Below are positions 2,598 to 64,000 of a stretch of DNA of 64,000 nt, one piece after another. Each line of letters opens with the position of its first letter. The stretch's first letter is position 1. The notes under the pieces were generated by a model that had not been told where the DNA came from, did no database searches, and saw only the letters and a program-made list of their open reading frames with translations. The position numbers were made by a program, and so were the translations under genes. Source of the stretch: a virus (taxonomy: Duplodnaviria > Caudoviricetes); the IMG/VR virus record IMGVR_UViG_3300044961_000667; one strand, given 5' to 3'.

Positions 2598-3721
2598 TTT
2601 CGCTTCGCCCAGCCGATCACCGGCGAGCGTTCAGCGGACTTCTCGTCGAACTCACCCCTCATGCGCCCCGTCTTCTGCTCGGCGCTCTTGTCGCCGAAGC
2701 TGAAGCCCTGGGTCTCGGTGAAGATCGTGTTGCCGAAGCCCATGAGGATCCCGAGCGTCGGGGAACCGGAGACACCCATCCTCGACGAGAGGCTCTCCCA
2801 GTTCTCCACCGCGTACGAGATCCCCTTCTTCACGAGATCGAGCGGGTACTGCTTCAACAGCGTCTTCAGCTGCCCCCGCTCCTTGCCGGTCCACTCGCCG
2901 ATCACCAGCTGCGGGAACTTCGCCTTCAACGCCTGGCGGTAGTGATCCTCGACTTCGATCTCGTCTCGACGCCACGGCTCGACCTCGGCCGGCTTCCCGG
3001 TCTTCTTCCCGCCGCGGGCCTTCTTCGGCTCCGGCTCCGTCCTCGCCCGCTCCAGCAGATCGTGCGCCCCTCTCACGACACGGCGCTCAACCTTGGCCGC
3101 GTGAGCGGCAGCTGTCTGTGCAATCGATTGCGCTTCCGCGGCGCGGAGCCGGGCGTCCCTGTCGTCGGCCGTTGTTGATGCCGAGGGGCCACCGTCACCC
3201 AGGACCTCGGAAGCCAACGGGCCCTGCGAAGCAGGCCCCATTTTCTCTGAGTCTCTTCCCTGATTCTCCTTCAACTGACTCTCTTCCCTTGTCACCCCAT
3301 CCATGAGGTCAGGGTGACCGCGTACGTGCGGTGGGGGTGACCTCACATGTGAGGTGGGGGTGCCATCATCCGTGATGTCAGGGTCCTCCTCGGAAGCTGG
3401 ATCAGCGAACATCCACGGGTGGTCTCGGAACCTGTAGAGACTCGGGAGCCCAGCAGCCTGCCGAAGCTCGACCTGGATCAGTCCGTGGTCCCTCAACTCG
3501 GCGACGTACCTCTGAGCCTGCGCCTCGCTGATCGCCAGCTCACGAGCCAGCGTCTTCATCTTCGGGAACGCCACGCCCTTCCGCCCAGCGAACTGGCACA
3601 GCCTCGCATAGGCCAGCTTCGCTCCAGCCTGGATCTCAGGCCGGCAAAGCAGCCAGTTCGGCACGAACGCGCCGATGAACTGGTTCCACGGGTTGATCAG
3701 TCGTTCCCCATCATTCGCCAT
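2594..3721 (-). CDS. phage replication initiator with N-terminal helix-turn-helix
   Basis: FVPNWLL...AKLAYARL...AFPKMKTLARELAISEAQAQRYVAELRDHGLI is typical of phage replisome-organiser HTH domains; contains iterons; likely start ATG 3721 (ORF track starts at 3766). Confidence 0.8.
   Translation of the reverse strand: MANDGERLINPWNQFIGAFVPNWLLCRPEIQAGAKLAYARLCQFAGRKGVAFPKMKTLARELAISEAQAQRYVAELRDHGLIQVELRQAAGLPSLYRFRDHPWMFADPASEEDPDITDDGTPTSHVRSPPPHVRGHPDLMDGVTREESQLKENQGRDSEKMGPASQGPLASEVLGDGGPSASTTADDRDARLRAAEAQSIAQTAAAHAAKVERRVVRGAHDLLERARTEPEPKKARGGKKTGKPAEVEPWRRDEIEVEDHYRQALKAKFPQLVIGEWTGKERGQLKTLLKQYPLDLVKKGISYAVENWESLSSRMGVSGSPTLGILMGFGNTIFTETQGFSFGDKSAEQKTGRMRGEFDEKSAERSPVIGWAKRK
3241..3383. 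repeat. putative replication origin: four tandem 23-bp dyad iterons (3292-3383) plus a pyrimidine-rich tract
   Basis: Units TCACCCCATCCATGAGGTCAGGG, TGACCGCGTACGTGCGGTGGGGG, TGACCTCACATGTGAGGTGGGGG, TGCCATCATCCGTGATGTCAGGG; adjacent TC-rich stretch at 3241-3291; inside the initiator gene. Confidence 0.75.
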
Positions 3722-3870
3722 GGCCACCTCAGCGCCAGAGTCCCCCTCCGGCAAAGACGGCACCAACCGCTGGCAGCCATCGCTGCCTCAGCCAGCAGGA
3801 AGTGTCGGGAATGAGTCGGCAAGTACCTCACGCCTCAGAGATCGTCAAGAGGATCATGCGGTAAGGCGGA

Positions 3871-4359
3871 TCACTGCTGCGAAACTGCCTCGAAGCCCAG
3901 CTTCACCGCGGTGCCCGACTTGGTGTGCACGAAGCCTTCGCCGTCGCGCCACTGCAGCCCGACGTCTTCACCCAACGTCTTCTGCACCATCGCTCGGGCC
4001 AGCACCGTCACTCGGTGCTTCACCTGCTCGGACTTGTTCGGGTCCTGGTCGCGATGCAGGCTCAGCAGCACGTCCATCTTGTACGGGTGGCTGGATCCCG
4101 CCTTCTTCTCGAACTTCACCGCCACCGCCCATCGACATCTCTCGGGATCGGACGCGTCGAACCTCGGGTCCTTCATGCCCAGCTTCCGCGCCCGCCTCAG
4201 CGTGAACGGCAAGTGCCTCATCACCAACGTGATCCCCGACGGAGCCACGTTGGCCACCGCGGACGGCGGCGGCGCCAGTTCCAGGATGGCCGGGTGCTGT
4301 GCGCCCGCCTTCGCGAACTTCTCGATCAACACCGCCATCAGACTCGCCGACTGGCCCAT
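3871..4359 (-). CDS. hypothetical protein
   Basis: 162 aa ORF with typical codon bias; true start may be ATG at 4338. Confidence 0.6.
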   Translation of the reverse strand: MGQSASLMAVLIEKFAKAGAQHPAILELAPPPSAVANVAPSGITLVMRHLPFTLRRARKLGMKDPRFDASDPERCRWAVAVKFEKKAGSSHPYKMDVLLSLHRDQDPNKSEQVKHRVTVLARAMVQKTLGEDVGLQWRDGEGFVHTKSGTAVKLGFEAVSQQ

Positions 4360-5080
4360 TCGCCTTCTCCCTCTGTTTCGCGCGCCAACGGCGCTTCTCG
4401 ATGTTCGCCTTGTCTCGGAAGACCGGGTCCTCTCGGCGACGTCGCTTCTTGTACTCGTTCTCGCGCTTCCGGTTGTCGCGCGCCCACTTCGCGTCCCGTT
4501 CGCGCTTCTTCTTCACCAGCGCGACCACCCGCGGATCATCGGGCTTCTCTCGCCTCAGCTTCGCCAGCTCCTGACTGCGGCGACGGCCCTGGCACTTCAT
4601 GCACTCGCCACGCGACGCGTGACGCTGGTTCGGAGCCGTGCCGTTGGTGCCGCACACCACGCAGCGATCGTGGTACCGCGACCACCGCACCGTCGGCTGC
4701 CCGTACCTGGACAGGAACACCAGGTCCCGGCCCTCCTGCAGGAAGTCGACAATCTCCTCGAACTGCTCGTCCGAGATGACGTACCGCGTGCCGCCCTTCC
4801 CATCAGCGCGCACCTTCCGCGACTTCGCACGGCGCCACTTCTGGCCCAGCGCCAGCCGCGCTCGCTTCACCTGCTTCCAGTTGTACCCGGTCTCCTTGAT
4901 GATCCGGGCCATCGTCCACGTGCCCTGCCACACGTCGATCCCCAGCGTTCTGCTGCGCGACTTGATGGCCTTCCAGCTTCTCCCAGGCAGCAGCTGCAGC
5001 AGGCGATCTCTCGTCGCACCGCCGGCGTAGTTGAAGAGCAGGTTGTCTTCGGCCTTCGTCCATGACGGCGACTTCGGCAT
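3968..5080 (-). CDS. putative DNA-binding protein (Myb/SANT-like start, CxxC zinc motifs); 3' run-on probably artefactual
   Basis: WTKAEDNLL...LPGRSWKAIKSR, CVVC/CMKC, basic tail; overlaps the next gene by about 390 nt. Confidence 0.55.
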   Translation of the reverse strand: MPKSPSWTKAEDNLLFNYAGGATRDRLLQLLPGRSWKAIKSRSRTLGIDVWQGTWTMARIIKETGYNWKQVKRARLALGQKWRRAKSRKVRADGKGGTRYVISDEQFEEIVDFLQEGRDLVFLSRYGQPTVRWSRYHDRCVVCGTNGTAPNQRHASRGECMKCQGRRRSQELAKLRREKPDDPRVVALVKKKRERDAKWARDNRKRENEYKKRRRREDPVFRDKANIEKRRWRAKQREKANGPVGESDGGVDREVREGGRTAPGHPGTGAAAVRGGQRGSVGDHVGDEALAVHAEAGAEAGHEGPEVRRVRSREMSMGGGGEVREEGGIQPPVQDGRAAEPASRPGPEQVRAGEAPSDGAGPSDGAEDVG

Positions 5081-5083
5081 CGG

Positions 5084-5377
5084 CTACCCCCGAATCACTC
5101 GAATCCTTCCGCAGGAGCACAGCATCCGCACCGAGCCGTCTTCCTGTACCTCGGCGTGCTCAAGAGGCTCACCGCAGCGATCGCATCGGTCCGGCAGGGG
5201 CACCCGCTTCCTCTTCACTTCGAGCGGCCAGAAGAACACGACCTGCACGAAGGCCAGGAAGTGATCTCCAGCGTGACGGGCCACGCTGGAGATCCGCCCC
5301 AGAAAGAACAGCCAGTACACGAAGCCACGGGTGACGTAGAGCACCACGAAGACTCCGAGCGCGATCTTCCAGGCCAT
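5084..5377 (-). CDS. small membrane protein with zinc-finger-like cysteines
   Basis: Two hydrophobic segments followed by CDRC and CSC. Confidence 0.55.
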   Translation of the reverse strand: MAWKIALGVFVVLYVTRGFVYWLFFLGRISSVARHAGDHFLAFVQVVFFWPLEVKRKRVPLPDRCDRCGEPLEHAEVQEDGSVRMLCSCGRIRVIRG

Positions 5378-5421
5378 TCTGAAAGCTACAGCCGGTTTCT
5401 CAGTCGTTGTCTACAGCCGGC

Positions 5422-6210
5422 TCAGAAAGCCTTGTTGCCGTGCTTGAAGCCGCGCGCCCGGTTCTTCTCCAGCTTGGCCGCCACGATGCTCCACATGCGG
5501 TTGGCCGGGTCGAGCTTGTCGCACAGCGCCTCGCAGTCGACGATCAGCCGACCGAACTCTCGCTGCATCTCCTGCGCGTTCGGCGTCTCCGGCTTCCGGT
5601 ACGCCTCCATCAGCCGGAACGACGGCATCACCACCAGCCGCATCACCTGGGCGTAGAAGTGCTCCATCGAGAAGAGCCGCAGGTCGCGCTCCACCTTGTG
5701 CACCCCGACTCGCGTCAGCCCCGTGATGTTGTAGTACGCCAGCTGCGGATTCATCTCCAGCTTCCGCATCAGGTGCAGCACCCGAATCACCACGTCGGCG
5801 AACTCGATCTGCATCCGCTTCACCCACTCCGCCGTCGGCACCGGCTCACCATTCTCGCCGACCTGGCCGACCTCGAACTCCTCGCACGCTTCCGACGCCT
5901 CGCTGGCGCACAGGGCGAACTTCATCCCCAGCTCCAGCTTGTTGCTGAGATCGATGGTCCACCCGTTCATCTCGTTCACTTCCGTCACTTCGTTCGCGAT
6001 CTCGACGAGATTCACGCCAACGGTCGATTCGTTCTGCACTGGCACCTCCAGAGGATGTTGGACTTCCCACGGGAAACAACGAGCCAGCTGCGGGAAGGTC
6101 AGCCGGCTCAACATCTCGTTCTGTTGAGCCCTGCTGCTCCGCGAGTACAGGAGCTTCAGCTGCTCATCCGAGACTGCGCTCAGGTCCTGGGAAGCGTCTT
6201 CTTGGCCCAT
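5422..6210 (-). CDS. MazG-like NTP pyrophosphohydrolase
   Basis: SEASEACEEFE...EFADVVIRVLHL acidic motif; degenerate second half. Confidence 0.7.
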   Translation of the reverse strand: MGQEDASQDLSAVSDEQLKLLYSRSSRAQQNEMLSRLTFPQLARCFPWEVQHPLEVPVQNESTVGVNLVEIANEVTEVNEMNGWTIDLSNKLELGMKFALCASEASEACEEFEVGQVGENGEPVPTAEWVKRMQIEFADVVIRVLHLMRKLEMNPQLAYYNITGLTRVGVHKVERDLRLFSMEHFYAQVMRLVVMPSFRLMEAYRKPETPNAQEMQREFGRLIVDCEALCDKLDPANRMWSIVAAKLEKNRARGFKHGNKAF

Positions 6211-9080
6211 GGCCCGTTGACGACTACGGAATCCTCCGCGCTGTCAACGTCCTCGGGAGCCTCCGCATCAGCCATCTGCTCGTGCAGCTGGCCGAGGACT
6301 TCCGGGTCGAACGCCTCCGCGAGGAAGCGCGAGGGCTCGATGAAGCGACCGAACTTCTCCTGCACATGGGACAGGTGGACCTTGTCCTTCGCCCGCGTGA
6401 TGGCCACGTAGGCCAGCCGCCTCTCTTCCTGAATCTTGTCGGCCGCCATCGACTTGATGTGCGGCAGCATCCCTTCGCCCCAGCCCACGCCGAACACCCA
6501 CGTGAACTCCAGGCCCTTGGAGCGGTGGATCGTCATCAGCTTCACGGTGTCGCTGGAGAGCTGCGCCTCCTTGTCCTTCACCGTGCTCGCCTCGGCGATG
6601 AACTCCATGAACTCCTCGTACGTCCCGTACTGGCGAGCGATCTCAATCAGCTCCCGCACGTTCTCCGCCCGGTCGCTCACCACCTCGCCGCCCCGTTCCT
6701 CCGGCCGCTCGTAGTGCTGCTGCAGCGTCTGGTCGGGGTGCACCGTGCCGCGAACGTCCAGGATGTCCTCGATGATCTCCACCGGCGTCATCGCCTTCAA
6801 CGAGCGCAGGTGGGCGATGTCGTTCGCCAACGACCTGGCGCCACGCTCCATGTACGGCCGGCTGAAGCGACCGTTCAGCGTGCGCAGGGCATCACCGGTG
6901 CGCCCCTTCGCCGCCCGGTACTCGTTCCACCACGCCTTCCCGAGGTACCGCGGCGGCGTGTTGTACGCCCGCTCCAGCGCATCGTCGTCGTTCGGGTCGC
7001 CGATGAGCTTCAGGTACGCCACCACGTCCATGATCTCCGCCCGCCCGAAGAACGGCGCCGAGCCGTAGATGATGTACGGGATCCCCGTCTTCCGGAGCGC
7101 ATCCTCCACCGGCGCCGACTGGTAGTTGCTGCGGTACAGCACCGCGAAGTCCTTCGGCTTCATCCCGGCGTCGAGGCCAGCCTTGATCTGGTCCTTCACC
7201 CACTGCGCCTCAGCCCCGGTGTCTCGGTGAGACACGATCACCGGCTGCACGCCCTCCTCCCGCTGGGTGAACAGCTCCTTCGGGATGCGCTCGGTGTTCT
7301 TCTCGATCAGCCGATTGGCAGCCCGAACGATGACGTTCACCGAGCGGTAGTTCCTCGCGAGGAACAGCTTCTCGACGTTGGGCCGCTCCGCGAACTCCAG
7401 CATGAACTGCGGGACCGCGCCGCGCCAGGCGTAGATGCCCTGGCAGTTGTGCGTCACAATGCCGTCGGCCACGTAGGTGTGATCATTCTCAACCGTCAAC
7501 GAGTACACCGGGCCGCTGTACGACTCGTGCCTGATGACGAACGGAACGTACAAACTTCCGGTCACCCTGCTTCCATCCACCGACACCGCTTTCGACAGCG
7601 GCAACATCTCCATCCCGTCGAACAAGTTAACAGCCCGAACCACAGTGGGTCGGCGCGTCTGCAGATAGGCTTCGCCTTTCTGCCAGAGCGGATAGTTCAC
7701 ATCCTTGCGGTGGGCCGTCAACGCAGCCGCCGCTGCGTTCCGGTTGCTGCCCAGTTTCGACCAGAAGGCATCAAGCTGATCTTGGCTCAGTCGCAGATCG
7801 TTGGTGCTCGCCCTGAAGCACAAAGTCGGAACACCGAACGACCACGCTGTAACCATCTCGGCGAGAGCCGCCTGGTCTCTCGTGTCGTGAACGCTGAGAA
7901 TCCAAACCGCATCAGCCTTTTCCTGGTTGGCCCGGAGAACCACTCCAATGCGCTTGTGCTGGCTGGCCATTCGACCACTGGTGATGCCGATCCGGTAGTC
8001 GTCGCCGCGCCGCATCATGTAGACAACGTGTTTCTTCAACAGCTCGTCGCCAAACCGAACAACGCAGTGATGGTTCGGCGTGTACCGAGACTCCAACCCG
8101 TCCGGCGTACGAACAACAACCAACTCGCCGACGTGAGGCTTCACCATCACCCTCGACACCACGGAACCAGTTCTACGCAGATGGCTGTGCGCCATATCGT
8201 AGCTCACTACAACGTCTCCCTCGCGCACCTGCTCGATTGGCACCTGCTTCATCTCCGTTGGAACACCTTGCTTTCCCCGTCCCAGCGACTTGTACCGCTG
8301 CGTCACCACCGTCACCATCGTCCCCGGCGGCTGGCAGTCGTCGCCGATCATCATCAGGTTGCCGTCCTTCGTCGCCACCAGCTGAGCCAGCTCGATCTGC
8401 GCCTTGTTGTTGTCCTGGCACTCGTCGACCATCACGTAGCGGTAGCGCTCACGGACCTCCGCCCGCAGCCGCTCGTTCGACGAGAGCAGCTTCCACGCGT
8501 AGTAGAGCATGTCGTCGAAATCGAGCACCCGCTCTTCGTTCTTCCGCTTCTCGTACAGCGAGTAGAAGTCCGACATCGACGTCGCCTGGTGGTCGGACAG
8601 CAGCTGCTGCCGCATCTCCTCCGGGCCCATCAGCGAGTTCTTCGCCTTCGCGATGGCGATGATCACGTCCTCCGGCAGCCACTCCTCCGTGCGGTAGCCG
8701 AGGTCCTTGATGACGTTGATGATCATCGTCTTCTTGTTCTTCAGCACCGTGTAGCCGCCGTACCCGTTGTTCCGCAGCAGCGAGAAGCCGAAGCTGTGGA
8801 ACGTCGAGATCGTCGGCCGGCGCCCTCTCACGCCGAGGTTCTCCATCAGGTCGTCGAGGCGACCGTTCATCTCCTCCGCGGCGTTCTTGGTGAACGTCAC
8901 GGCGAGAATCTGGCTGTCGGGGATGCCGCGGGCGAGGAGAGCCACCACGCGGTGGATCAAGCACCTCGTCTTCCCCGCGCCTGGGCCGGCAATCACCAGG
9001 CACGGTCCATCGAAGTGCTCCGCCACCTTCTGTTGGGCCTCGTCGAGACCCGACAGAACCTTCTGCAGATCGTTGCTCAT
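6180..9080 (-). CDS. UvrD/PcrA/Rep family SF1 helicase containing an intein
   Basis: AGPGAGKT, VTFTKNAA, TFHSF, VDECQD, GDD/CQGIYAWRGA, NYRS, VLYRSN, TIHRSKGLEF, EERRLAYVAITRAK; RBS before ATG 9080. Confidence 0.93.
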   Translation of the reverse strand: MSNDLQKVLSGLDEAQQKVAEHFDGPCLVIAGPGAGKTRCLIHRVVALLARGIPDSQILAVTFTKNAAEEMNGRLDDLMENLGVRGRRPTISTFHSFGFSLLRNNGYGGYTVLKNKKTMIINVIKDLGYRTEEWLPEDVIIAIAKAKNSLMGPEEMRQQLLSDHQATSMSDFYSLYEKRKNEERVLDFDDMLYYAWKLLSSNERLRAEVRERYRYVMVDECQDNNKAQIELAQLVATKDGNLMMIGDDCQPPGTMVTVVTQRYKSLGRGKQGVPTEMKQVPIEQVREGDVVVSYDMAHSHLRRTGSVVSRVMVKPHVGELVVVRTPDGLESRYTPNHHCVVRFGDELLKKHVVYMMRRGDDYRIGITSGRMASQHKRIGVVLRANQEKADAVWILSVHDTRDQAALAEMVTAWSFGVPTLCFRASTNDLRLSQDQLDAFWSKLGSNRNAAAAALTAHRKDVNYPLWQKGEAYLQTRRPTVVRAVNLFDGMEMLPLSKAVSVDGSRVTGSLYVPFVIRHESYSGPVYSLTVENDHTYVADGIVTHNCQGIYAWRGAVPQFMLEFAERPNVEKLFLARNYRSVNVIVRAANRLIEKNTERIPKELFTQREEGVQPVIVSHRDTGAEAQWVKDQIKAGLDAGMKPKDFAVLYRSNYQSAPVEDALRKTGIPYIIYGSAPFFGRAEIMDVVAYLKLIGDPNDDDALERAYNTPPRYLGKAWWNEYRAAKGRTGDALRTLNGRFSRPYMERGARSLANDIAHLRSLKAMTPVEIIEDILDVRGTVHPDQTLQQHYERPEERGGEVVSDRAENVRELIEIARQYGTYEEFMEFIAEASTVKDKEAQLSSDTVKLMTIHRSKGLEFTWVFGVGWGEGMLPHIKSMAADKIQEERRLAYVAITRAKDKVHLSHVQEKFGRFIEPSRFLAEAFDPEVLGQLHEQMADAEAPEDVDSAEDSVVVNGPWAKKTLPRT
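7446..8336 (-). mobile_element. intein (297 aa) with GIY-YIG-like endonuclease in helicase motif III
   Basis: Starts CQPPGT, ends VYSLTVENDHTYVADGIVTHN, followed by Cys; internal VVYMMRRGDDYRIGIT; AT-richer codons. Confidence 0.9.
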
Positions 9081-9163
9081 TTGCTCTCCCTTGGTGCCAC
9101 CTGTTGCCCGTTGAGTGTCGGGGTCACCACCAAGCAGATGAAACCACCGTTTCTCCTGCTTTG

Positions 9164-10027
9164 TCAAGAGGAAGGCGGCTCCGGCGGCTTGTAGTTCAGC
9201 ACCACGATCTCCTCGACATCTCCGCGCTTCTCGTAGTGCGTGTTGATCGACCGCGGCGCCGTCACCGTCCGCACCTCGAACTTCGAGTACAGCGCCTTCA
9301 CCTTCGGGTGACTGCTGTTCGACAGCATCACCTTGACGCCGCGGTCCGTCAGGCGGGAGTACGTCTCCGCCAGCTTCTTGTGGTCGAGCAGCGAGAACTC
9401 ACCCGCGGTGTACGCCGTGAAGCTCGACGTCTTCGACACCGGAAGGTACGGCGGGTCCATGTAGACGAAGTCGCCTTCCTCCGCGTGCGTCAGCACCGCC
9501 TGGTAGGTCACCACGTCCAGCATCGTCCCCCGCAGAGCCTCGGAGCACGCCCGCAGGTTGTCGCGATCGCACACGGTCGGACGGTTCTTGAACTTGCCAG
9601 GCGGGACGTTGAAGCGGCCCTTGTCGTTGACCCGGTACAGGCCGTTGTAGCCCGTCTTGTTCAGGAAGATCATCCGCGCCGCACGCTGCTCTTCGGTCAA
9701 CGACCGCGGCATCTGCTCGCGCACCGAGTAGTAGTACTCGTCCCCGCCGGCAGTCCACGCCTGGTCGTGCTCGTCGAGCCGCTTCACCACGTCCTCGACC
9801 CGGTCTCGCACCATCTTGTACGACCAGATCAGCTCCTCGTTGACGTCGGAGAGCACCACCCGCTTGGCCGCCTTGAGCTTCCCGGCCGCAGCCAGCGAGT
9901 AGAACATCGCCCCTCCGCCGAGGAACGGCTCCATGTACGTGCCGAACTCGGCAGGTAGCATCCCGGCCAGGGTCTCCAACAACGCACCCTTGCCACCAAC
10001 CCACTTCAGAAACGGTCTCGCGCTCAA
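9164..10027 (-). CDS. dam: DNA adenine methyltransferase (Dam/D12 family)
   Basis: PFLKWVGGK, EPFLGGGA, DVNEELI, FLNKTGYNGLYRVN, YMDPPY. Confidence 0.92.
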   Translation of the reverse strand: MSARPFLKWVGGKGALLETLAGMLPAEFGTYMEPFLGGGAMFYSLAAAGKLKAAKRVVLSDVNEELIWSYKMVRDRVEDVVKRLDEHDQAWTAGGDEYYYSVREQMPRSLTEEQRAARMIFLNKTGYNGLYRVNDKGRFNVPPGKFKNRPTVCDRDNLRACSEALRGTMLDVVTYQAVLTHAEEGDFVYMDPPYLPVSKTSSFTAYTAGEFSLLDHKKLAETYSRLTDRGVKVMLSNSSHPKVKALYSKFEVRTVTAPRSINTHYEKRGDVEEIVVLNYKPPEPPSS

Positions 10028-13579: not shown

Positions 13580-15374
13580 TCAGGCCCTACGCCCTTCTCC
13601 TGGGAACAGGATGTCGCTGGCCCTCATGGTGGCGTGGTGCTCTTCATCGATGAGGCCAGCGCGGCGGAGTGACGACAGGTAGTCGGCGAACGTTCCACCC
13701 GACACCTCCATCTCAACCATCTCGGCGAGTTCCTCTCGCGTCATCCAGCTCGGGTACGACGCGACCAGCACGTTCAGCATCTTCCTCGCGCCAGCCTTCA
13801 GGTTCCGGCTCCACATGCTCACCAGCTCGTGAGTCGAGGCCGGCGCCGATCGGGCCGCGGGTCCCAGGAACTGCATCCCGGACGCGGAGATCTTCAGCGA
13901 CTGAGCGTTCTCCTCCACCAACCCAGCCCGACGGAGCGCCGAGAGGTAGTCGGCGAACGTCCCGCCCGACACCGCCATGCCAACCAGGGTGGCCAGCTGC
14001 GGCCTGGTGGTCCACGCGCCCGGTCGCGCCGAGAGAGCGATCAACATCTCCTTCGCCCCCTTCTTGATCGTCACGTCGCCGATCGCCTGCGGTCCCGGCC
14101 GCGCGTACTGCGCGAGAGCCTTCTTCACCGACTCCGGCAATAGACGAGGCTCCGGTGCGCGGGGGCATCGGGTTGTGCGGCGGGTAGAGCCCCGGTCCGA
14201 TCACCTCATGGGGGTTGAAGGCCGGCATCGCCGGTTCGACGTGAGGGCGACCGATTGAACGTGCAATCGATTGCGCAGCATCCTTCGTGTCGGCAGCCGC
14301 ACCGGCCAGCTTCTCCGCCGCCTTCTCCAGACGCTTCAGCTGCTTTTCGGTCAACACCGGAACCTCCTTCACGACTTCCTTGATCTGCACCTTCGTTTCG
14401 GTCGGCCGACTCTTCAGCTCGCCTTCCAGCTGAAGAATGCGACGCTTCAGGAAGTCGGGGTCTGCCTTCTCGGCGTCCTCCACCATCGACTTCAACGACT
14501 CACGCAGCTTGGCGACGTCCACCGCGGCCAGCCTCTTCGGCTCGACGAACTCCTCGCCGAACTCCGGCGTGGCCGACGAGTCGAACGTCAGCTTCCGGTT
14601 CACCTTCACCGTCCGCGACACCTTCAGAAACGACGGGCTCCACAGGTGCGCCATCCCCGTGTCGAGCCCTGGCAGGGTGTCAACCAGACTCAGTTCTTCC
14701 GCCTTCGTCACCTTGTCGCTGACCCACGCGATGATCGCCTTCTTCTCGTGGCTGCCGATCGTGCGGTGAGCGAGCACTGTCCCTGCCTGGTTCAACACCC
14801 GCTTGTGCACCGCCTGCGGCTGCTGAGTGATCAAGGACCAGCCGACGCCGTAGTTGCGCCCGAGCTTCAACAGCCGCTCAACTCGGTTGAGCATGACGCC
14901 TTCGTCCTTCTCGGGCGTCTGAGGGGCGAACGTCTGCGCTTCCTCCCAGAAGACGTGCACCGGCGACTTCGACTTCTTCTTGGCCTGGAAGAACGCCTCG
15001 GCGAAGTCTCGAACGAACCGCTTCGTCTCCGCCGTGGTGAACTCCGACACGTCGAGCACCGCGGAGATCTGCTTCTCCACGAGCACGCTGGCCATCAGCC
15101 CGCCCTACTCTGGCGTGAGCGGCAGATCGCCATGCTCCCCGCCAAAGACTGTGATCGCGAACCCATCCTTCTTGCCGTCCGCAGAGCTTCGCAGCCCCCA
15201 CCAGACGCCCACGGGATCAAGAGCGCCAACCTGCGCCCCGACCTCCAGCATCAGCTCGGCCAACTTGGTCGCGGAGTACGTCTTGCCGCCGCCGCTTTGC
15301 CCCAGGAAGGCGAACTTCTGCGTCACAGCTGCCAGCGGCAGCCCCAACCCATCTGCAAACGCGAGCGTCTTCAT
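13580..15374 (-). pseudogene. HerA/DUF87-like ATPase with C-terminal winged-helix repeats, broken by an in-frame TAG and a frameshift
   Basis: GQSGGGKTY, LDPVGVWWGL, VFWEEAQTFAP, GRNYGVG, ITQQPQ; TAG at 15105-15107; frame change near the G5 run at 14161-14165; two SGGTFADYLS.LRRAGL repeats. Confidence 0.75.
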
Positions 15375-20318: not shown

Positions 20319-20354
20319 CCGGACTTCGTGCAATCGATTGCGCCCTCCGTCAAG

Positions 20355-27096: not shown

Positions 27097-27163
27097 CCGG
27101 GTGTAGCGGTATTCAGGCTCGGACGTTCGCTCGTGGGCGGCTCTGTGCGGCAACGTCGCGCAA
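27097..27163. repeat. dispersed ~70-bp intergenic element, copy 1
   Basis: 20-bp exact match CCGGGTGTAGCGGTATTCAG plus TTCGCTCGT and CGTCGCGCA shared with 30532-30598. Confidence 0.7.
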
Positions 27164-27185
27164 CCGTGCAATCGATTGCGCGACT

Positions 27186-27201
27186 CGTTCCACGTGGAAC
27201 A
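27186..27201. promoter_or_regulatory. parS-type ParB binding site
   Basis: CGTTCCACGTGGAACA (reverse complement TGTTCCACGTGGAACG); intergenic; fits the bacterial parS consensus TGTTNCACGTGNAACA at 15/16. Confidence 0.7.
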
Positions 27202-29607: not shown

Positions 29608-30213
29608 TCAGTCGTCGTCTTCTTCGCGCTCGCGGTCGCCGTACCAGTGGTTCTCGCGGATGTACTTCACCGCCGCCTCCGCCGAGGTGAAGGTCTTCAC
29701 CTCGTTCTCGCGCTTCGTCAGCACCAGCTCGGACAAGTCGGGCTTCGCCCGCAGCTCGAACGAGCCGAACCGCGAGAGCGAGTTCTCGAAGATGGCGAAC
29801 CACACATACCCGTCTTCGTGCGGCGTCATCAGCGGCGCGAAGTGCTTCACGCCGGCGAGGTTCATCTGCTCGCTCTTGTCCGTGCGCTCGACCTTGAGCT
29901 TGACCGACGCCTCCATCGTGTCGGACCAGTAGCCTGAGTGCCACATGTCGAACTCCTCGCGGAGCCGCTTCTCGAAGTGGCGGTACAGCAGCATCGACCC
30001 GCCGCCACCCTCCGCCAACTCCTTCAGCATCGTCTTCCAGTCGGGCCCGCTGCCATCGGCCAGGCGCAGCTGATCGCGCCGCTCCTCCAGCTTCCGGATC
30101 TCGTCGTAGAGCACCACAGCCTTGTCCTGTAGCGGCTTCATCTGCTCGAAGAGCGCGTTGCGTTCCTCGGACAGCTTCTTCATCTGCTGTTCGACCTGCT
30201 CGGCCTCGTTCAA
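29608..30213 (-). CDS. hypothetical protein, coiled-coil N-terminus
   Basis: 201 aa ORF. Confidence 0.6.
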   Translation of the reverse strand: MNEAEQVEQQMKKLSEERNALFEQMKPLQDKAVVLYDEIRKLEERRDQLRLADGSGPDWKTMLKELAEGGGGSMLLYRHFEKRLREEFDMWHSGYWSDTMEASVKLKVERTDKSEQMNLAGVKHFAPLMTPHEDGYVWFAIFENSLSRFGSFELRAKPDLSELVLTKRENEVKTFTSAEAAVKYIRENHWYGDREREEDDD

Positions 30214-30531: not shown

Positions 30532-30598
30532 CCGGGTGTAGCGGTATTCAGCTCGTGTCTTTCGCTCGTAGGCGCTCAAATGCGAACGCCGTCGCGCA
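30532..30598. repeat. dispersed ~70-bp intergenic element, copy 2
   Basis: See copy 1 at 27097. Confidence 0.7.
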
Positions 30599-40365: not shown

Positions 40366-40433
40366 GCTCGCGATGAAGCCCGCGTTCGGGCCGCTGTCAA
40401 CCAGCTCGCCTGTGCAATCGATTGCGCGTGCGC

Positions 40434-43905: not shown

Positions 43906-44181
43906 CTACTTGATGCCGCTCGTCTCCCAGTCGACCTCGTTCGGCGACTGCAGCTGGTAGGCGCCGCCGCCTGACGGAGCGAACCAGAACGTCCACTCGC
44001 TCGTGTCGCCGCCGTTCTTGAACTTCGTCAGCGCTTCGACACGCCGGCCGCCGTTCAGATTGGAGCCACCGTACACGATGTCGATCTTCACCTTGCTGGT
44101 GTCGGGCTCCAAGTACGGGTTGTTCTTCGGCGGCATGCCTTCGCACACCGCGACATCGCCGATCTTCACCTTCTGGTTCAT
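43906..44181 (-). CDS. hypothetical protein
   Basis: GAGGAG RBS before MNQKVK. Confidence 0.55.
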   Translation of the reverse strand: MNQKVKIGDVAVCEGMPPKNNPYLEPDTSKVKIDIVYGGSNLNGGRRVEALTKFKNGGDTSEWTFWFAPSGGGAYQLQSPNEVDWETSGIK

Positions 44182-44423
44182 CACGCTCTCCTCAGCTGGT
44201 CTTTCCAGTGTGGCGGATCGTCCTCCGAAAGCATCTCCGCTTCCTCGATGGGCTCTCGGTCGGCGACGAAGATCATGTGCCCCTCGGCGCACCGGTACCT
44301 GTCGGTTTCCGAGTCCCACCGGCCCTCGACGTCGCAGATGCCGATGGACCCGATGAACTCCAACGGGGTCCCGTCGCTCGGGCACACGCCGCCAGCCTTC
44401 TTCGTCTGCTTCTTCTGCCCCAT
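44181..44423 (-). CDS. small zinc-finger-like protein
   Basis: CPSD...C..GH. Confidence 0.5.
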   Translation of the reverse strand: MGQKKQTKKAGGVCPSDGTPLEFIGSIGICDVEGRWDSETDRYRCAEGHMIFVADREPIEEAEMLSEDDPPHWKDQLRRA

Positions 44424-45079: not shown

Positions 45080-45295
45080 CTACCTCCCGAGGAACTCCGG
45101 CGTGTAGAGCATGCGCGTCTTGGCCGGGAACACGGCGTAGTAGTCGCCGTCGGCGTACTTCGTCATCTTCGTGCCGTTGGACGTCTTCTCGTTCCAGATC
45201 TTGTCGGCCTCAGCCCTCGATAGCGGCCCCGACACGTCGATCCACCCGTCAAACATGTCCCACTGCCGCACGATGAACAGTGGCTGACTCACCAC
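45080..45295 (-). CDS. hypothetical protein
   Basis: GAGGAG + GTG start. Confidence 0.5.
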   Translation of the reverse strand: MVSQPLFIVRQWDMFDGWIDVSGPLSRAEADKIWNEKTSNGTKMTKYADGDYYAVFPAKTRMLYTPEFLGR

Positions 45296-45726
45296 AGACA
45301 CTCCTCGATCTTGGAGTACGGGATCGTCTCGCTCGTGATGTAGATCTCGCAGTGCTTCGGGATGGTCGTCCAGCGGACGCCATCCTCCGTGATGACCATC
45401 TGATCGCACTCAGTGCGCTCCCCGTCGTTGTCGCCGGGGTCCCAGTCGGTCTGGGCAGCCTCGCCCTGATCGACTTTCTCGGTCTCCTCGTCCGGCGGCA
45501 CCCCGTACTGGAAGTACCTGGCGTGGTGATCGCCGAAGTACATCTCCCAGAGCGGGTTGCCCCAGTCTCGCCCCTCGGCCTTCTTCTCTTCCTCGTTCGC
45601 CTTCAGGAAGAGCTTCCGCCGGCGGAGGATCGTCTTGGCCAGCTCGGGGCCGACGTCGACCCAGACGTAGTCGATGTCCGCGTTGTAGTTCTCGTTGTTG
45701 CTGTACCCACGCATCAGGAACTTCAT
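45289..45726 (-). CDS. hypothetical protein
   Basis: GGAGG RBS directly after a palindrome copy. Confidence 0.6.
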   Translation of the reverse strand: MKFLMRGYSNNENYNADIDYVWVDVGPELAKTILRRRKLFLKANEEEKKAEGRDWGNPLWEMYFGDHHARYFQYGVPPDEETEKVDQGEAAQTDWDPGDNDGERTECDQMVITEDGVRWTTIPKHCEIYITSETIPYSKIEECLW

Positions 45727-45766
45727 GGCGCCTCCAGGTTGGGGTGCAATCGATTGCGCATGCGGC

Positions 45767-46105
45767 CTACAGCCCCTTCTTCGAGCGGATGCGCACCGCG
45801 ATCTGGGTAAACGGCTTCTTCGGAGTGATGTCGCAGACGCCGATCTTTGGGTCCTCGAAGTCGATCCTCGTGTCGACGATCTCGCCCTTGGCCGACGTCA
45901 GGCCATCGCCATCACCGGCGCCAAAGCCGCGGTTGACGATGATGTGCGCCCAGTACGTGCCGTCGTCGCAGCGAGCCACCTCGATCGCCCCGCCGGGAAA
46001 CTCGATGATGTGCTGCGACGACTCGATCTTCTTCGTCTTGTCTCCCAGCAGCTTCACCTTCCTGGGCGCCTTGTCGATGGTCCAGTTCTTCGCCGTGTCA
46101 GCCAT
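45767..46105 (-). CDS. hypothetical protein
   Basis: AGGAG RBS; HIIEFPGGAIEVARC. Confidence 0.6.
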   Translation of the reverse strand: MADTAKNWTIDKAPRKVKLLGDKTKKIESSQHIIEFPGGAIEVARCDDGTYWAHIIVNRGFGAGDGDGLTSAKGEIVDTRIDFEDPKIGVCDITPKKPFTQIAVRIRSKKGL

Positions 46106-54476: not shown

Positions 54477-54513
54477 ACGGCCTCCACGTGCAATCGATTG
54501 CGCATTACAAGGG

Positions 54514-58798: not shown

Positions 58799-59125
58799 TC
58801 ATGGCACAAGGCCATCTGGTTCGTCAAGAGGATTTCGCCGGCGCGCCGGGTTGTACTCGTCTCCCTCGGTGACCATGTGGAACGGATCGAACGTCTCGAC
58901 GGTGACCCAGAAGCACTTGCCCTTCGACGGCTTCACCTGCTTGCCGTCCGGCCCCACCACCTTCACGCGCTCCGGCAGCTTCACCCACTGAGAGTCTGCC
59001 TTGCCGACGCTGATGCCTTCCTGGATCTCCAAGACGTCGCGGCCAGACAGCTTCACCTTGACGCACGCCCATGGACGACCCAAGGCGGTGACTCCGTAGA
59101 CTTCACTCTTTCGCAGGAAGTGCAT
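58799..59125 (-). CDS. hypothetical protein
   Basis: 108 aa ORF; start uncertain. Confidence 0.5.
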   Translation of the reverse strand: MHFLRKSEVYGVTALGRPWACVKVKLSGRDVLEIQEGISVGKADSQWVKLPERVKVVGPDGKQVKPSKGKCFWVTVETFDPFHMVTEGDEYNPARRRNPLDEPDGLVP

Positions 59126-59205
59126 TCAGGAAAAACCAACTCACTCGGACGCGCGGCGATGCCGCACTCCGACAGTCAGCTCTCTCTCGTTGTGGTGGGA
59201 GACTT

Positions 59206-59424: not shown

Positions 59425-59696
59425 GGCTCCTTCGGACGAATGGCCTTCAGGTACACCCGCACAGCCTCCGGCGGATTCCCGCCCTCCGTCAATCCGCGTC
59501 GTCGAATCTCCACCACCAGCTCAGCCTTCGAGTGCACGACGGTGCACGTCTGCAGGTTCCGAAGGCGATGTCCCACGGCCGTCATCAGCTCTTCTTCGAG
59601 TGCTTCCCCGTCGACCAGCACGCGCTCCAAGACGTGGTTGAGCCACCACATCTCGACGAGCTGCTCATCGGTGACCGGTACGCGGAGCGGGGCCAT
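59421..59696 (-). CDS. hypothetical protein
   Basis: 91 aa coupled ORF. Confidence 0.5.
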   Translation of the reverse strand: MAPLRVPVTDEQLVEMWWLNHVLERVLVDGEALEEELMTAVGHRLRNLQTCTVVHSKAELVVEIRRRGLTEGGNPPEAVRVYLKAIRPKEP

Positions 59697-60965: not shown

Positions 60966-61000
60966 GGACTCTCCTTGTGAAACACGCCTCTCAACGAGCG

Positions 61001-62254
61001 TCAAAAGGCATCGACGTCGTTGGAGTTCAGCACCGCCACGAAGCCGTGGCCCTCGATGTTGAAGGCGTGCCGCGGCAACGGGCGCTGGTTGTCCCGGAAC
61101 GTCGACGGCGGAGCGTACGGCTCCGTCGGGCACTGGTTCTCACCCAGCGGCTCTCCCGGAGCAGGGGCCTTCGTCTGGTACAGCATCTCGTGCAGGTGCA
61201 GGACGGCGTCGCCCTTGTGCTTGAACATCTCCAGCATGCGCACCATCAGCGGAGCGTTGAGCGACGGCTTGTTGCCACGGAACGTGTACGTCACCCCGGC
61301 TTCGTGATCGACGCGAGAGACGAACACGCACTCGTTCGCCGTCCACAGCCGCCCCTTCTCCCTCGGCGACACCAGAAAGCCACTCTCTCCCACGCGCACG
61401 GCGATGCCGCCGAAGACACGACTCGTCGTCCCCATTGGGTGGGAGAAGCGATCCCGGTACTTCTCGATGATGCGCTCCATGCGCTTCACCGCCGCCTCCA
61501 TTTCAAACCAGGGTGGGTCCTTCGGGTTCGGCTCCGCCTCAGTGCGGTAGAACCTGTCATTGATGGTAGCTTCGAGGTCCGAGTACATCCGGTCGAACCC
61601 CGCCACGTCTCCGATGCAGATCTCCGCGTCAGCCCGGTAGATGTCGCTGTGACCGTCCGGATAGATCAGCCGTTTCTGCCGGAGGTCGGAGAAGTCGTTC
61701 GCCACCACCACGTTGCAGTGCGCCTTGAAAAGCGTCTGGTACGCAGCGGCCAGTGTCTCCTGCGTCGTTGAGCCGGAGGTCATCTTGCAGCCGATGAGCG
61801 TGAGCTTTGGGTTCAGCTTTTTCATCCGGTCGATGACGCGCGGTACGAGGATGAACGGGATGAGCTGCTCCGCTCCTTCGGTGAAGCCCTCGGTGGGCAT
61901 CTTCCCCTTGAAGGGTGCCTTCGGAATCCAGTTCACGACGGCAGCGGCCATCACGGCGGCGTCCACCTTCGGTGCCAGCTCGTAGCACTGCTCCGCGTAG
62001 GACTCGTAGCCGGTGTGAATCTTCCGATGGAACAGAGCCGAGACCGGTGCGCGGTGCGCGCGGTACTCCGCCCCCATCCGTTCGTTCACGGTCGCCTTGT
62101 CGAGGGTGTCCGGAAGCAAGAGTGTCACTTCGTGGTTCCGAGCGTGCAACCACGCGGCGAACTTCACCGCCCAGATGCCTCTGATGCGGTTGCCGACGAG
62201 CTTGTTGTCGTCGAGCTTCCCGTACACCGTTCCTGCCGTCACCAGCACTTTCAT
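61001..62254 (-). CDS. CoaB (phosphopantothenoylcysteine synthetase)-like domain fused to a class II aldolase-like domain
   Basis: VLVTAG...LD...VGN..RG, EVTLL, AAAVVNW, IGCK, VVVAND; then GGIAVR, FLVSP, KPSLN, AVLHLH, GHGFVA. Confidence 0.7.
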   Translation of the reverse strand: MKVLVTAGTVYGKLDDNKLVGNRIRGIWAVKFAAWLHARNHEVTLLLPDTLDKATVNERMGAEYRAHRAPVSALFHRKIHTGYESYAEQCYELAPKVDAAVMAAAVVNWIPKAPFKGKMPTEGFTEGAEQLIPFILVPRVIDRMKKLNPKLTLIGCKMTSGSTTQETLAAAYQTLFKAHCNVVVANDFSDLRQKRLIYPDGHSDIYRADAEICIGDVAGFDRMYSDLEATINDRFYRTEAEPNPKDPPWFEMEAAVKRMERIIEKYRDRFSHPMGTTSRVFGGIAVRVGESGFLVSPREKGRLWTANECVFVSRVDHEAGVTYTFRGNKPSLNAPLMVRMLEMFKHKGDAVLHLHEMLYQTKAPAPGEPLGENQCPTEPYAPPSTFRDNQRPLPRHAFNIEGHGFVAVLNSNDVDAF

Positions 62255-62257
62255 GAC

Positions 62258-62521
62258 CTACTCCTCGAACTCGTCGTGAAGCTGCTTCAGCGTGGCCCCC
62301 AGCGTGTCGCCGGGGATGTACGGCAGGTCGTGCTCGCCCTCGATGAACTCGGTCGTGCCGTCCTCGAAGACGATCGAGTGAAGCTGCAACACGAGCGTGT
62401 CGTCGCCGAAGTCCGACGAGATCGAGCACTCGATGCGCTTCACCTTCTTCCCGTACAGCTTCTCCAGATCGATGTTGCTGTACCGATCTCCGGGCTGAAC
62501 CTGGATGTCGACGAGCTTCAC
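62258..62521 (-). CDS. hypothetical protein
   Basis: GTG start overlapping the upstream stop. Confidence 0.55.
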   Translation of the reverse strand: MKLVDIQVQPGDRYSNIDLEKLYGKKVKRIECSISSDFGDDTLVLQLHSIVFEDGTTEFIEGEHDLPYIPGDTLGATLKQLHDEFEE

Positions 62522-62814
62522 GACGCGGCCTCCTGCCGGCAGACCTCTTCGACGTGCTCGCGGAACTCCGCCTCGGGCGGGCAGAACTTCTGCTTGGCGA
62601 CGGGGCCGTACCAGTACCCGATTTCCAGGATGTCGACCTCCACCGGGCTCGACTTCAGCTCCTTCGGGAAGTGCTTCTCGCCCCACTGCTTGTACTCGTC
62701 GACGTCGAAGCGACGGATGTCGAGGAAGCACGTCGGCACGACGCCGAAGGGAACCCCCTTGGCGTCGACGTCCATGTCACCGTGGCTGTGGATGATGAAG
62801 GCTGGCTTGCTCAT
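62518..62814 (-). CDS. hypothetical protein
   Basis: 98 aa ORF. Confidence 0.55.
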   Translation of the reverse strand: MSKPAFIIHSHGDMDVDAKGVPFGVVPTCFLDIRRFDVDEYKQWGEKHFPKELKSSPVEVDILEIGYWYGPVAKQKFCPPEAEFREHVEEVCRQEAAS

Positions 62815-62823
62815 GTTCGTCTC

Positions 62824-63123
62824 CTAGATCTTGTCTCTCTTGCGTTGCGATGCGACCGCCAACCCCTGGCGGTAGTACTGACCGTCGAGAGGATCGAGCC
62901 ACCGCACGTTGTCTCCGGCGGGCTGATCCTCGAACACGTGAGGGATCCACTTGGCCGCGTGCAGGTACTCCGCCTCTGCGGCGAGCAGGCGTCCGGCTGC
63001 GTTGATGACGCTCCGGCCGACGGTTTCGCACCACGGCTGGTGCTCACCGATGACGTAGCTGTTGCACGACGAGCACAGCGACTTGTGATCGAGCTTGAAG
63101 TTCTTCGGGCGGTCCATCAGCAC
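62824..63123 (-). CDS. hypothetical protein
   Basis: CSSC...HQPWC. Confidence 0.55.
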   Translation of the reverse strand: MLMDRPKNFKLDHKSLCSSCNSYVIGEHQPWCETVGRSVINAAGRLLAAEAEYLHAAKWIPHVFEDQPAGDNVRWLDPLDGQYYRQGLAVASQRKRDKI

Positions 63124-63308
63124 TCTCTCAGCCAGTCCCTCGTCTGCTCGAAGGCTTGGCGCTTCTCCGGGTTGATGTTCGGGTACTTCTTCAGGTTCGC
63201 GTCGATGCGATCCGCGAACTCCTGCGCCGTCGACTTCGACAGCGCTGCGAGCGCAGCCGCCGCGCAGAACTCGTCCGACAGGACGTCCAGCCCCTTCTTG
63301 TCGCTCAT
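63117..63308 (-). CDS. hypothetical protein
   Basis: TGATG-coupled. Confidence 0.5.
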   Translation of the reverse strand: MSDKKGLDVLSDEFCAAAALAALSKSTAQEFADRIDANLKKYPNINPEKRQAFEQTRDWLREC

Positions 63309-63673
63309 CAGTTTCTCCGAGAGAGGATCTCCGCCGCCTTCATCACCCCGCGAGCAGTCGGCGTGACGATCGTCTTCAACCCCTGGTTCATCAGCATCGC
63401 CGACACCACGTTGCACACCCAGTCGACCTCGGCGGCAAACGTGATCGACCGCCAGATGTCGGCGTCGGTTGCACCCTGGACCATGAAGCGCATGCGGTGC
63501 TCTGCCTGGCGAGCCTCGTCAAGCAGGACGCCGAGGTTCTCAGGCGACTTCCGCCGGCACGCCTCGAAGCCCGCCAGCGCCCCCGCCCGACGAGCCTCGT
63601 CGTTGGCGTAGTCGACGTTCACCGCGCGAATTCCGTCCTCGATCAGGTGCTGCAGGAACTCTTCGTAGGTCAC
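63308..63673 (-). CDS. hypothetical protein
   Basis: 121 aa ORF. Confidence 0.6.
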   Translation of the reverse strand: MTYEEFLQHLIEDGIRAVNVDYANDEARRAGALAGFEACRRKSPENLGVLLDEARQAEHRMRFMVQGATDADIWRSITFAAEVDWVCNVVSAMLMNQGLKTIVTPTARGVMKAAEILSRRN

Positions 63674-64000
63674 GCGTTCTCCAGCGTCTTGTGGGGCCAG
63701 TACCTCGGGATGGACTGCGTCTGAGCGCGAAGCGTCATCGACTGCCGCTCCACCGTCCCCGCGGGCACCCCGTGGATGCCGCGCGCCGCAGCCACAGCCG
63801 GGGCGACGTCGAGAGTGACGATCTGCAGCGTGTGCCCGAAGGCGACGGCCAGGGCTGCGTATGGCGCCAGCTCGGCCACCGACGTGTTCGTGTTGTCGAC
63901 CACCAGCACGTCGACATCACCCGGCGATGCAATCGATTGCGTGTACCGCCGCAGGCAGTCCGCGTGCGCGTCGCTGAGTCGCGTGGCGTCGAACTTGTAC
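63670..64000 (-). CDS. AAA_33-type P-loop kinase, C-terminal part (5' end outside window)
   Basis: FDATRLSDAHADC...VLVVDNTNT..ELAPY...RGIHGVP. Confidence 0.75.
   Translation of the reverse strand, partial: YKFDATRLSDAHADCLRRYTQSIASPGDVDVLVVDNTNTSVAELAPYAALAVAFGHTLQIVTLDVAPAVAAARGIHGVPAGTVERQSMTLRAQTQSIPRYWPHKTLENA

Follow-up and report, generated by a model that had tools for sequence, protein, structure and literature searches.

A dispersed, CG-centred palindrome in a clade of uncultured phages as a candidate binding site for a dimeric protein

Why would a phage carry one short, nearly palindromic sequence again and again, in identical copies that all face the same way? The question is raised by a 64,000-nucleotide stretch of IMG/VR virus record IMGVR_UViG_3300044961_000667 (the whole stretch is called the window below), which is part of an uncultured phage of about 200 kb. 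A sequence-only reading had listed eight copies of a 16-bp quasi-palindrome in it. We found all eight in place, and we also found perfect palindromes before late genes and sister palindromes, spelled differently but built on the same pattern, in related phages. We propose that the element is a self-contained duplex binding site of 16-18 bp for a symmetric, dimeric, sequence-specific protein, and that it serves as a genome-wide operator or roadblock. To this reading we assign a probability of about 0.5.

Copies in the window and in the late region

The 14-mer TGCAATCGATTGCG occurs exactly, on the plus strand, at 3119, 14262, 20329, 27167, 40413, 45745, 54489 and 63928. With up to two mismatches allowed, the expected count in the window is 0.51, and none of 100 dinucleotide-preserving shuffles came up to the observed one (16 matches). 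Seven of the eight copies share an identical 16-mer (GTGCAATCGATTGCGC), while the copy at 63927 (ATGCAATCGATTGCGT) deviates from it at the outermost positions only. Scanning the window revealed no further sequence within three mismatches of the 16-mer, so that copies are either exact or absent. The spacing of 5-13 kb given by the sequence-only reading is real: the gaps between copies measure 5.3-13.2 kb and are more even than random placement would make them (P = 0.001 for a minimum gap of at least 5332 bp and P = 0.004 for a coefficient of variation of at most 0.33). In the flanking DNA, no copy was present in the 8.3 kb past the window end or in the 7.1 kb ahead of its start.

GC3 analysis and the map of open reading frames (ORFs) placed all real genes of the window on the minus strand. 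The motif is therefore to be read on the coding strand, as GCGCAATCGATTGCAC, where it forms a palindrome of two abutting arms, GCGCAATC and GATTGCGC, with a single break (A instead of G). This asymmetric form points in the same direction in all eight copies, with the weaker arm toward the downstream gene. The co-orientation had been presented as a 1 in 128 event; the observation stands, but the argument is weaker than claimed, because the phage and all examined relatives are essentially unidirectional. For the same reason, a link of the polarity to transcription is inseparable from one to the direction of replication or packaging.

Gene calls bear out that five of the eight copies lie just past stop codons, and that those at 45744 and 54488 directly precede a ribosome-binding site (RBS). 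These five intergenic copies begin 6-24 nt after the upstream stop; taking 10% of the DNA as non-coding, five or more of eight would be intergenic with P about 4e-4. All are on the minus strand. Copy 3 (20328..20343) lies 11 nt past a TAG and ends 10 nt before the ATG that opens the thymidylate kinase frame; it is unchanged in the variant strain L237. At copy 4 (27166..27181), the stop of a 128-aa gene is 23 nt upstream and the gene of a 70-aa CxxC protein follows after about 75 nt; its flanks (GTC...GGTTGCGCGAC) make a longer hairpin possible. Copy 5 (40412..40427) follows the TGA of a 134-aa gene by 6 nt and precedes a 69-aa gene by 46 nt. At copy 6 (45744..45759), 7 nt past a TAG, the motif is followed by GGAGG and then, at 18 nt, by the ATG of a 145-aa gene. 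Copy 7 (54488..54503), 10 nt past a TAG, is likewise followed by GGAGG, and the GTG of a 98-aa zinc-ribbon ORF begins at 11 nt.

The remaining three copies, also on the minus strand, are intragenic. Copy 1 (3118..3133), spelled GCGCAATCGATTGCAC, is inside the gene of an HTH_36 replication initiator (2594-3721) and is kept in variants L152-L155 and L164 despite a single-nucleotide polymorphism nearby. Copy 2 (14261..14276) is an exact 16-mer within a HerA-like ORF (13713-15095), directly trailed by a degenerate half-repeat (GTTCAATCGGTCGC). Copy 8 (63927..63942) is the variant, ACGCAATCGATTGCAT on the coding strand, within an AAA_33 kinase-like gene. That intragenic copies always read QSIA holds for all three: the first two are translated as AQSIA and the third as TQSIA. 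A fourth intragenic copy, found in a variant strain, has the same reading frame, and so has the motif in an open frame that runs across the homing cassette described below. Of the three possible frames, none of which holds a stop codon, (A/T)QSIA gives the most harmless peptide.

Exact-protein look-ups outward from the window reached the late region of the phage. On the same strand, it encodes RecA, GroES, a Cas4-like nuclease, SSB, an amino-sugar/glycosyltransferase operon, a ParB-like protein, and the terminase genes terS and terL. Two copies in this region are perfect palindromes that abut ribosome-binding sites and end 11-13 nt before start codons. One precedes the Cas4-like gene (CGCGCAATCGATTGCGCG-AGGAGatgtgaATG, in L177) and the other precedes terS (GCGCAATCGATTGCGC-gagagagctgtcgATG, in L174), where it lies 19 nt past the ParB-like operon. 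When 12 copies were aligned, conservation stopped at 16 bp and no pair of flanks was similar. The element is thus autonomous and was not spread as a piece of a longer repeat.

Variant strains revealed how sharply the site is kept. At copy 7, strains L171-L173 have the upstream DNA replaced by a 251-aa gene and a downstream zinc-ribbon homologue too diverged for blastn, and still carry the exact 16-mer, 13 nt from a GTG start. At copy 4, L237 has lost an upstream parS-like palindrome and bears about 25% substitutions downstream; here too the 16-mer is exact. At copy 6, sequencing run X12 skips 45168-45768, so that the motif and the 145-aa gene are gone together, and the contigs of run X6 break at the motif.

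A further case lies about 9 kb before the window start (L164:13030-13546), where a homing enzyme of the Endonuclease VII type (Pfam E = 1e-20) is encoded on a cassette of about 520 bp. This cassette interrupts the palindrome of the Cas4-like gene precisely at its midpoint, with a CG at either junction (CGCGCAATCG, cassette, CGATTGCGCG), and it brings its own intact GCGCAATCGATTGCGC, 43 nt from the left junction. The cassette is absent from strains L177 and L178. A 16-mer that stays exact amid replaced or diverged flanks, moves with the downstream gene and is replaced when split points to a site under strong selection. The replacement copy in the cassette and the joint gain or loss of motif and downstream gene fit a functional 5' control element. 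The motif also marks points at which homing cassettes and gene modules are exchanged, a finding relevant to the assembly of mosaic phage genomes.

Sister palindromes across the phage clade

We collected relatives by an IMG/VR search with an alignment of the ParB-like protein (79 loci) and scored each locus for a 12-bp perfect palindrome present at least twice. Such palindromes were found in 12 of the 79 loci, against none after shuffling and 3 of 178 control loci, and all repeated palindromes in the 12 loci are variants of one pattern about a central CG. Among them are TGCAAACGTTTGCA, GGWAATCGATTWCC and TGMTAACGTTAKCA, and the related IMG/VR records contain 9-45 copies each. G001 has GCAATCGATTGC, in the form ACTGCAATCGATTGCAGT, 9 times in 38 kb; G002 has GGWAATCGATTWCC 35 times in 42 kb; G003 has TTTGCAAACGTTTGCA 45 times in 102 kb; and G004 has TGMTAACGTTAKCA 18 times in 40 kb. 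At L301 and L302, GCAATCGTTTGC occurs in 4-5 copies per locus, with mixed half-sites. A strictly lineage-specific element had been considered, as loci found via the 145-aa protein and a 724-aa protein (L028 and L157-L161) were without the motif or any recurrent palindrome; the ParB-based search overturned this.

G001-G003 share with this phage the gene order DnaC-like protein, DnaB, primase, helicase, RecA, Cas4-like nuclease, glycosyltransferase, ParB-like protein and terS. Together with the same CCTCTTGAC promoter type in G003, this identifies them as true relatives. Qualitatively, a Shine-Dalgarno sequence with its ATG comes straight after many copies in the relatives, and after a few copies an ATG stands only 0-2 nt away; in G003, several ATGs follow the 18-mer at 0-2 nt without a Shine-Dalgarno sequence. 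As in the window, nothing is conserved outside the site.

The sister motifs differ from one another in an orderly way. Between lineages, the bases flanking the CG change in step (TCGA versus ACGT), and so do the arms. Within a lineage, half-sites mix: G002 has the variants GGAAATC and GGTAATC, combined in every way within sites, and in G004 the half-sites TGCTAAC and TGATAAC occur in all four combinations (5, 5, 5 and 3 copies). Polarity is biased 13 to 3 in G002. This conservation and co-variation across the clade support the genome-wide binding-site system that had been proposed from the letters of the window, and that may silence, activate, organise or mark the DNA.

Scanning IMG/VR with the motif gave unrelated single hits only, and so did metagenome contigs among the matches listed. 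No description of the motif strings was found in the open literature searched. INPHARED held no close relative of the phage (nothing by megablast, at most 31% identity for DnaB, the clamp and other proteins, and no match for terS), and there is accordingly no lineage literature to draw on.

In G003, tRNA-like 3' ends stand directly before three palindromes (29655-29680, 66998-67023 and 68966-69037; L319, L321), each followed by a protein gene; ARAGORN called one of the three, with an odd anticodon loop. Other phages that encode a ParB-like protein (L243, L294) have a different dyad, GGACCATACGGTCC or GGACCATATGGTCC, at 3-4 per 20 kb, perhaps another family of sites within this broad group.

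What might read the site

Each side of the invariant central CG carries a half-site YGCAAWC, and the whole is an even palindrome. Operators of the LacI/GalR family are even palindromes of 16-22 nt with a consensus central CG (PMC4052901), and both the palindrome of GCGCAATC and GATTGCGC and all sister motifs keep the CG and have this form. The likeness to LacI/PurR operators suggested by the sequence-only reading therefore holds for the grammar (central CG, YGCAAWC, and the sister motif GCAAACGTTTGC). No LacI-type helix-turn-helix (HTH) to go with it was found among the proteins of this phage that have a Pfam result or, above the cut-off, in five related records.

We then asked whether the letters are read as DNA or as RNA. 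Folded as RNA, six of seven sites were no better than shuffled sequences (z near or above zero); site 4, with its longer flanking hairpin, reached z = -2.5. In the commonest form a C-A mismatch leaves a stem of 4 bp, and the half-site variants would mispair in a stem at about half of the G002 and G004 sites. Arms and CG neighbours that co-vary, half-sites that assort freely, and weak folds together indicate duplex DNA read by a symmetric dimer rather than a hairpin. Mixed half-sites fit a dimer that reads each half independently, because a hairpin would select against mismatches.

From this we infer a protein dimer as the reader, most probably acting on transcription in the direction of the downstream gene. 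A lineage-specific dimeric regulator would bind the palindrome and control transcription entering the downstream gene, as an operator or as a roadblock; members of the LacI family can act as roadblocks. There may be two affinity classes, perfect palindromes before late genes and the one-base asymmetric form elsewhere. Copies occupy the narrow space from one stop codon to the following RBS and, where no such space is available, are placed within genes in the harmless frame, with an outcome of about one copy per 5-13 kb in this phage. Should the reader be such a global regulator, the timing programme of an entire group of phages would be set by it. The lineage spellings with their common grammar (GCAATCGATTGC, GCAAACGTTTGC, GGAAATCGATTTCC) are natural specificity-swap pairs for finding the reader protein.

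Several results weigh against an operator or roadblock. Degenerate copies are wholly missing in the window, which is unusual for transcription-factor sites. No LacI-type HTH (PF00356) occurs among the proteins of this phage with a Pfam result, which comprise the precomputed hits listed with the gene calls and about 37 scanned proteins; nor does PF00356 exceed its curated cut-off in any of five viral records from relatives, including one at about 80% completeness. In the window and the relatives, no sigma70-type -35/-10 stands at a fixed distance from the site, and the layout of an operator over a promoter was not seen. The position beside the RBS may merely reflect the only non-coding DNA available, and a statistic of proximity to ORF starts did not tell sites from random positions (35-53% for random ones). 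A site 0-18 nt ahead of start codons would be explained just as well by a promoter or a processing site. An 89-aa XRE-type HTH protein of G003, with a weak LacI-like match, was considered as the reader and rejected: its homologue is found in G004 only, and in none of the examined parts of this phage.

The main rival is a phage-specific promoter, in which an RNA polymerase or specificity factor encoded by the phage would recognise all 16-18 bp and transcription would start from the 3' edge. The perfect copies would then serve as strong late promoters and the form with one changed base as a weaker class, by analogy with the class III and class II promoters of T7. We consider this possible but a good deal less probable than a dimer-binding site. 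It would explain why copies are exact or absent, and why three window copies end 10-18 nt before a start with only an RBS between (11-13 nt at terS and the Cas4-like gene), as well as the ATGs of G003 that follow the 18-mer at once and lack a Shine-Dalgarno sequence. It is also consistent with a motif that moves together with its downstream gene and a homing cassette that has a copy of its own. The roughly 20 kb from recA to terL contain no early-type CCTCTTGAC promoter, although two other sigma70-like ones are there. The symmetry of the site is harder to accommodate: a perfect 18-bp palindrome would fire both ways, polymerase promoters are asymmetric, and palindromy upheld by compensating changes across lineages would be needless. 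T7-like promoters have an asymmetric consensus of 17-23 bp and come with a phage RNA polymerase gene, whereas this site is palindromic and neither a phage RNA polymerase nor a sigma factor was seen in the parts examined (Pfam scans and precomputed Pfam). Three of the eight window copies are, moreover, deep within genes. Were the site a promoter, it would be a new, palindromic type of phage promoter.

A second rival turns on P0147, the ParB-like protein encoded beside the terminase together with the amino-sugar/glycosyltransferase module, a combination that all relatives with the motif have in this place. Here the palindromes would be address labels, in one of two versions: parS/KorB-like loading of a clamp every ~10 kb, from which the ParB-fold protein spreads and coats or organises the genome, or sequence-specific DNA modification, in which it guides sugar modification at gene starts. 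We regard both as doubtful. ParB, Noc and KorB bind palindromes of 13-16 bp present in several exact copies, and the phage shows this format, in that its replicon has several exact palindromic copies and also encodes a ParB-family protein. In sequence, P0147 matches Noc/ParB/KorB at E = 8e-9, its predicted structure aligns over about 200 columns, and it keeps the GGEHRWRAA box. The even spacing and the copy between the ParB-like operon and terS also fit. As for sugar, a GT-B-like family of ~480 aa (L174:3951-5468 and 6551-8008, plus homologues) was found in every one of the 12 loci with the motif, compared with 18 of 65 others (Fisher P = 2e-6, uncorrected for shared ancestry).

The distribution of the proteins speaks, indirectly, against P0147 as the reader. 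Most loci with its closest homologues (45-51% identity) are without a repeated palindrome. Its helical domain is 38% identical to that of G001, which has the same motif, versus 44-51% to those of loci that have a different motif or no motif. Nor was a ParA partner seen. KorB operators (OB) of IncP plasmids, parS, and the Noc-binding sites (NBS) resemble the element in being 13-16 bp palindromes in several exact, dispersed copies, at promoters or inside genes, that are read by a ParB-fold protein encoded with them; their sequences are unrelated to it, no ParA was found here, and the ParB-like helical domain does not co-vary with the motif. If the site did belong to a ParB-like/sugar module, it would represent a new DNA-marking system with no described counterpart.

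Still more doubtful is a regulator of the host. In that account, the sites bind a LacI-family protein of the PurR or Cra kind and act as decoys that titrate it or tie the phage to host metabolism. The operator grammar would be explained directly (PMC4052901). So would the negative search for a LacI-type gene in the phages, and the lineage spellings could track different hosts. The sister core GCAAACGTTTGC is equal to the core of the E. coli PurR box. However, decoys need neither a fixed orientation nor exact identity. In 185,579 species genomes the 18-mer had 58 hits, all unrelated; they revealed no host regulon, and none stood next to a LacI gene. It is multi-copy in no ordinary bacterial genome among them, and the genes flanking two bacterial intergenic hits include no LacI-family regulator.

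The multi-copy hits of this search came from low-GC metagenome-assembled genomes (MAGs) of the candidate phyla radiation (CPR). There, CGCGCAATCGATTGCGCG is embedded in a 36-bp perfect palindrome (ccccgaagg-18mer-ccttcgggg) on several contigs, in some cases at contig ends: L184, L187 and L188 (a Peregrinibacteria MAG), L186, L189, L226 and L236 (a Patescibacteria MAG), and L229.

We think it very unlikely that the element acts in RNA, as a short hairpin by the RBS that would be an operator for translation, a stabiliser or a site of processing by an endonuclease. Its position immediately 5' of Shine-Dalgarno sequences invites the idea, and perfect copies can form a stem of 7 bp around a UCGA loop. 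In G001 and the CPR MAGs, the core lies within longer palindromes whose flanks vary between copies yet stay complementary. Against these stand the fold results, in which the majority form keeps a stem of 4 bp and z-scores are near or above zero at six of seven sites, and the mismatches that half-site variants bring to roughly every second site in G002 and G004. The loop is palindromic in its own letters, which change in concert, and some copies are deep within genes.

Least probable among these rivals is a target for endonuclease or recombination, serving mainly homing cassettes and module exchange, with no regulatory role. The Endonuclease VII cassette at the exact palindrome centre, the strain-variable segments that end at or beside copies 6 and 7, and the assemblies that break at the motif fit such a target. 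Cutting all copies, though, would destroy the phage's own genome, and the flanks show no site-specific recombination partner. Clade-wide conservation, co-varying arms and 9-45 copies per genome call for a positive function, and the rest of the window shows no avoidance of ATCGAT or TCGA. An intrinsic terminator, which would be a GC-rich hairpin with a U-tract behind it, was rejected, as no T-run follows any copy, the hairpin is weak, and a terminator scan found none at the sites.

Known dispersed repeats and features beside the copies

To our knowledge, dispersed near-identical short sites that govern whole phage genomes are represented by few systems (the stoperators of L5, the C1 operators of P1, and SAS/ESAS of Cluster K). 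Operator-like repeats dispersed through a phage are thus already known as a kind, as stoperators (PMC9283540) and as SAS/ESAS (PMC3203893, PMC12699233). What is novel is a palindromic element with LacI-like grammar and no LacI gene found, clade-wide with co-varying spellings, ahead of early and late genes. The dispersed-site idea is thereby met in uncultured phages of a large clade, whose DNA comes from hot springs, microbial mats, bioreactors, wastewater and soil and in which the spelling shifts by lineage and the grammar is constant.

The closest layout is that of the stoperators of Cluster A mycobacteriophages, to which the sequence-only reading had compared the repeat. These are more than 20 near-identical short sites throughout the genome, mostly in short intergenic gaps, with an orientation that follows transcription; they are asymmetric 13-mers bound by a monomer, L5 gp71, with two DNA-binding domains (PMC9283540). 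Dispersed near-identical copies in short gaps, the asymmetric ones co-oriented with the genes, are common to both, although a unidirectional genome gives the last point low test power. The analogy fails for the site itself, which is a palindrome of 16-18 bp (perfect in the late region) with freely assorting half-sites and not an asymmetric 13-mer for a monomer (PMC9283540). Stoperators further go with an immunity repressor of the phage that binds them and blocks elongation; neither a repressor candidate nor a lysogeny module was identified in this phage.

In form, the nearest match is with the LacI/GalR operators (PurR, Cra, GalR and the cre sites of CcpA), which share with the element an even palindrome of 16-18 bp, the central CG and a half-site close to TGNAANC; GCAAACGTTTGC fits this as well. 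Those operators usually lie 30-140 nt before the start, whereas here the distance is 0-30 nt and, for most intergenic copies, 10-18 nt. The element differs further in reaching tens of copies per phage genome, with no LacI-type HTH gene in the examined parts of the phage or in the five related records.

SAS of Cluster K mycobacteriophages is a non-palindromic 13-mer containing AGGAG, 3-7 bp before the start (PMC3203893), and ESAS consists of two imperfect 17-bp inverted repeats with a spacer of 4-13 bp (PMC3203893, PMC12699233). The element resembles them in being lineage-specific, in having one orientation directly upstream of many gene starts, and in being kept when the downstream gene family differs. 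Unlike SAS, it is palindromic and 5' of a separate Shine-Dalgarno sequence; unlike ESAS, it has no spacer, as the arms abut at the CG. Both of those are confined to non-structural genes, whereas the palindrome also precedes late genes. The PeSL cassettes of T4-type phages are promoter-plus-stem-loop units of about 80-100 bp at the borders of variable gene modules. They share with the element short repeated sequences where modules appear exchanged; here the unit is 16 bp, with no associated promoter motif.

The window encodes DnaB, a DnaC-like loader, the initiator, a UvrD helicase with an intein, a beta clamp, a ligase, a minimal PolX, a radical SAM protein, thymidylate kinase and others. Near-identical DNA was present in sequencing runs from the five settings named above. 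The UvrD-like helicase (6180-9167) has the intein in the window and in L152 (966 aa by gene call) and is without it in strain L153 (669 aa). A stretch of 242 bp with an 81-aa ORF (44179-44420) is absent from all four other aligned runs and represents a strain-specific small gene.

About 20 sigma70-type promoters were recognised on the coding strand of the window, with the form cCTCTTGACgAAac-N~12-tgGTAgaT. Their extended -35 is cCTCTTGAC(g/a)AA, and the extended -10 after it is, for example, tgGTAgaT or CATGAT. Examples on the minus strand are at 58828, 55479, 53988, 50371, 47455, 39686, 35524, 33749, 30491, 26864, 25157, 19659, 18934, 9168 and 3849. The related record G003 has the same promoter as CCTCTTGAC-N17-TATAAT ahead of an XRE-type HTH gene. 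No such promoter overlaps a palindrome. Copy 3 alone has a TTGACG, which the sequence-only reading had noted 17 bp from the copy; the hexamer is present but ends 4 nt before the motif on the coding strand, with no usable -10.

AAGCTT, AGGCCT and CCCGGG are missing from the window, where 13-16 of each would be expected, which resembles avoidance of particular restriction sites. The palindrome was also considered as a restriction site, and this was rejected, as ATCGAT and TCGA occur in the window at normal frequency and are not depleted.

Two further features lie beside copy 4. Four nucleotides upstream of it, at 27186-27201, is the parS-like CGTTCCACGTGGAACA, close to the canonical chromosomal parS consensus; it is present in a single copy and is probably not essential, given its loss in L237. 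After the copy, at 27097-27162, comes a repeat of about 70 nt (TGCGCGACG...ACGAGCGAA...CTGAATACCGCTACACCCGG), found again 3.4 kb off at about 30532-30598 without a palindrome, which may be a leader or a small RNA.

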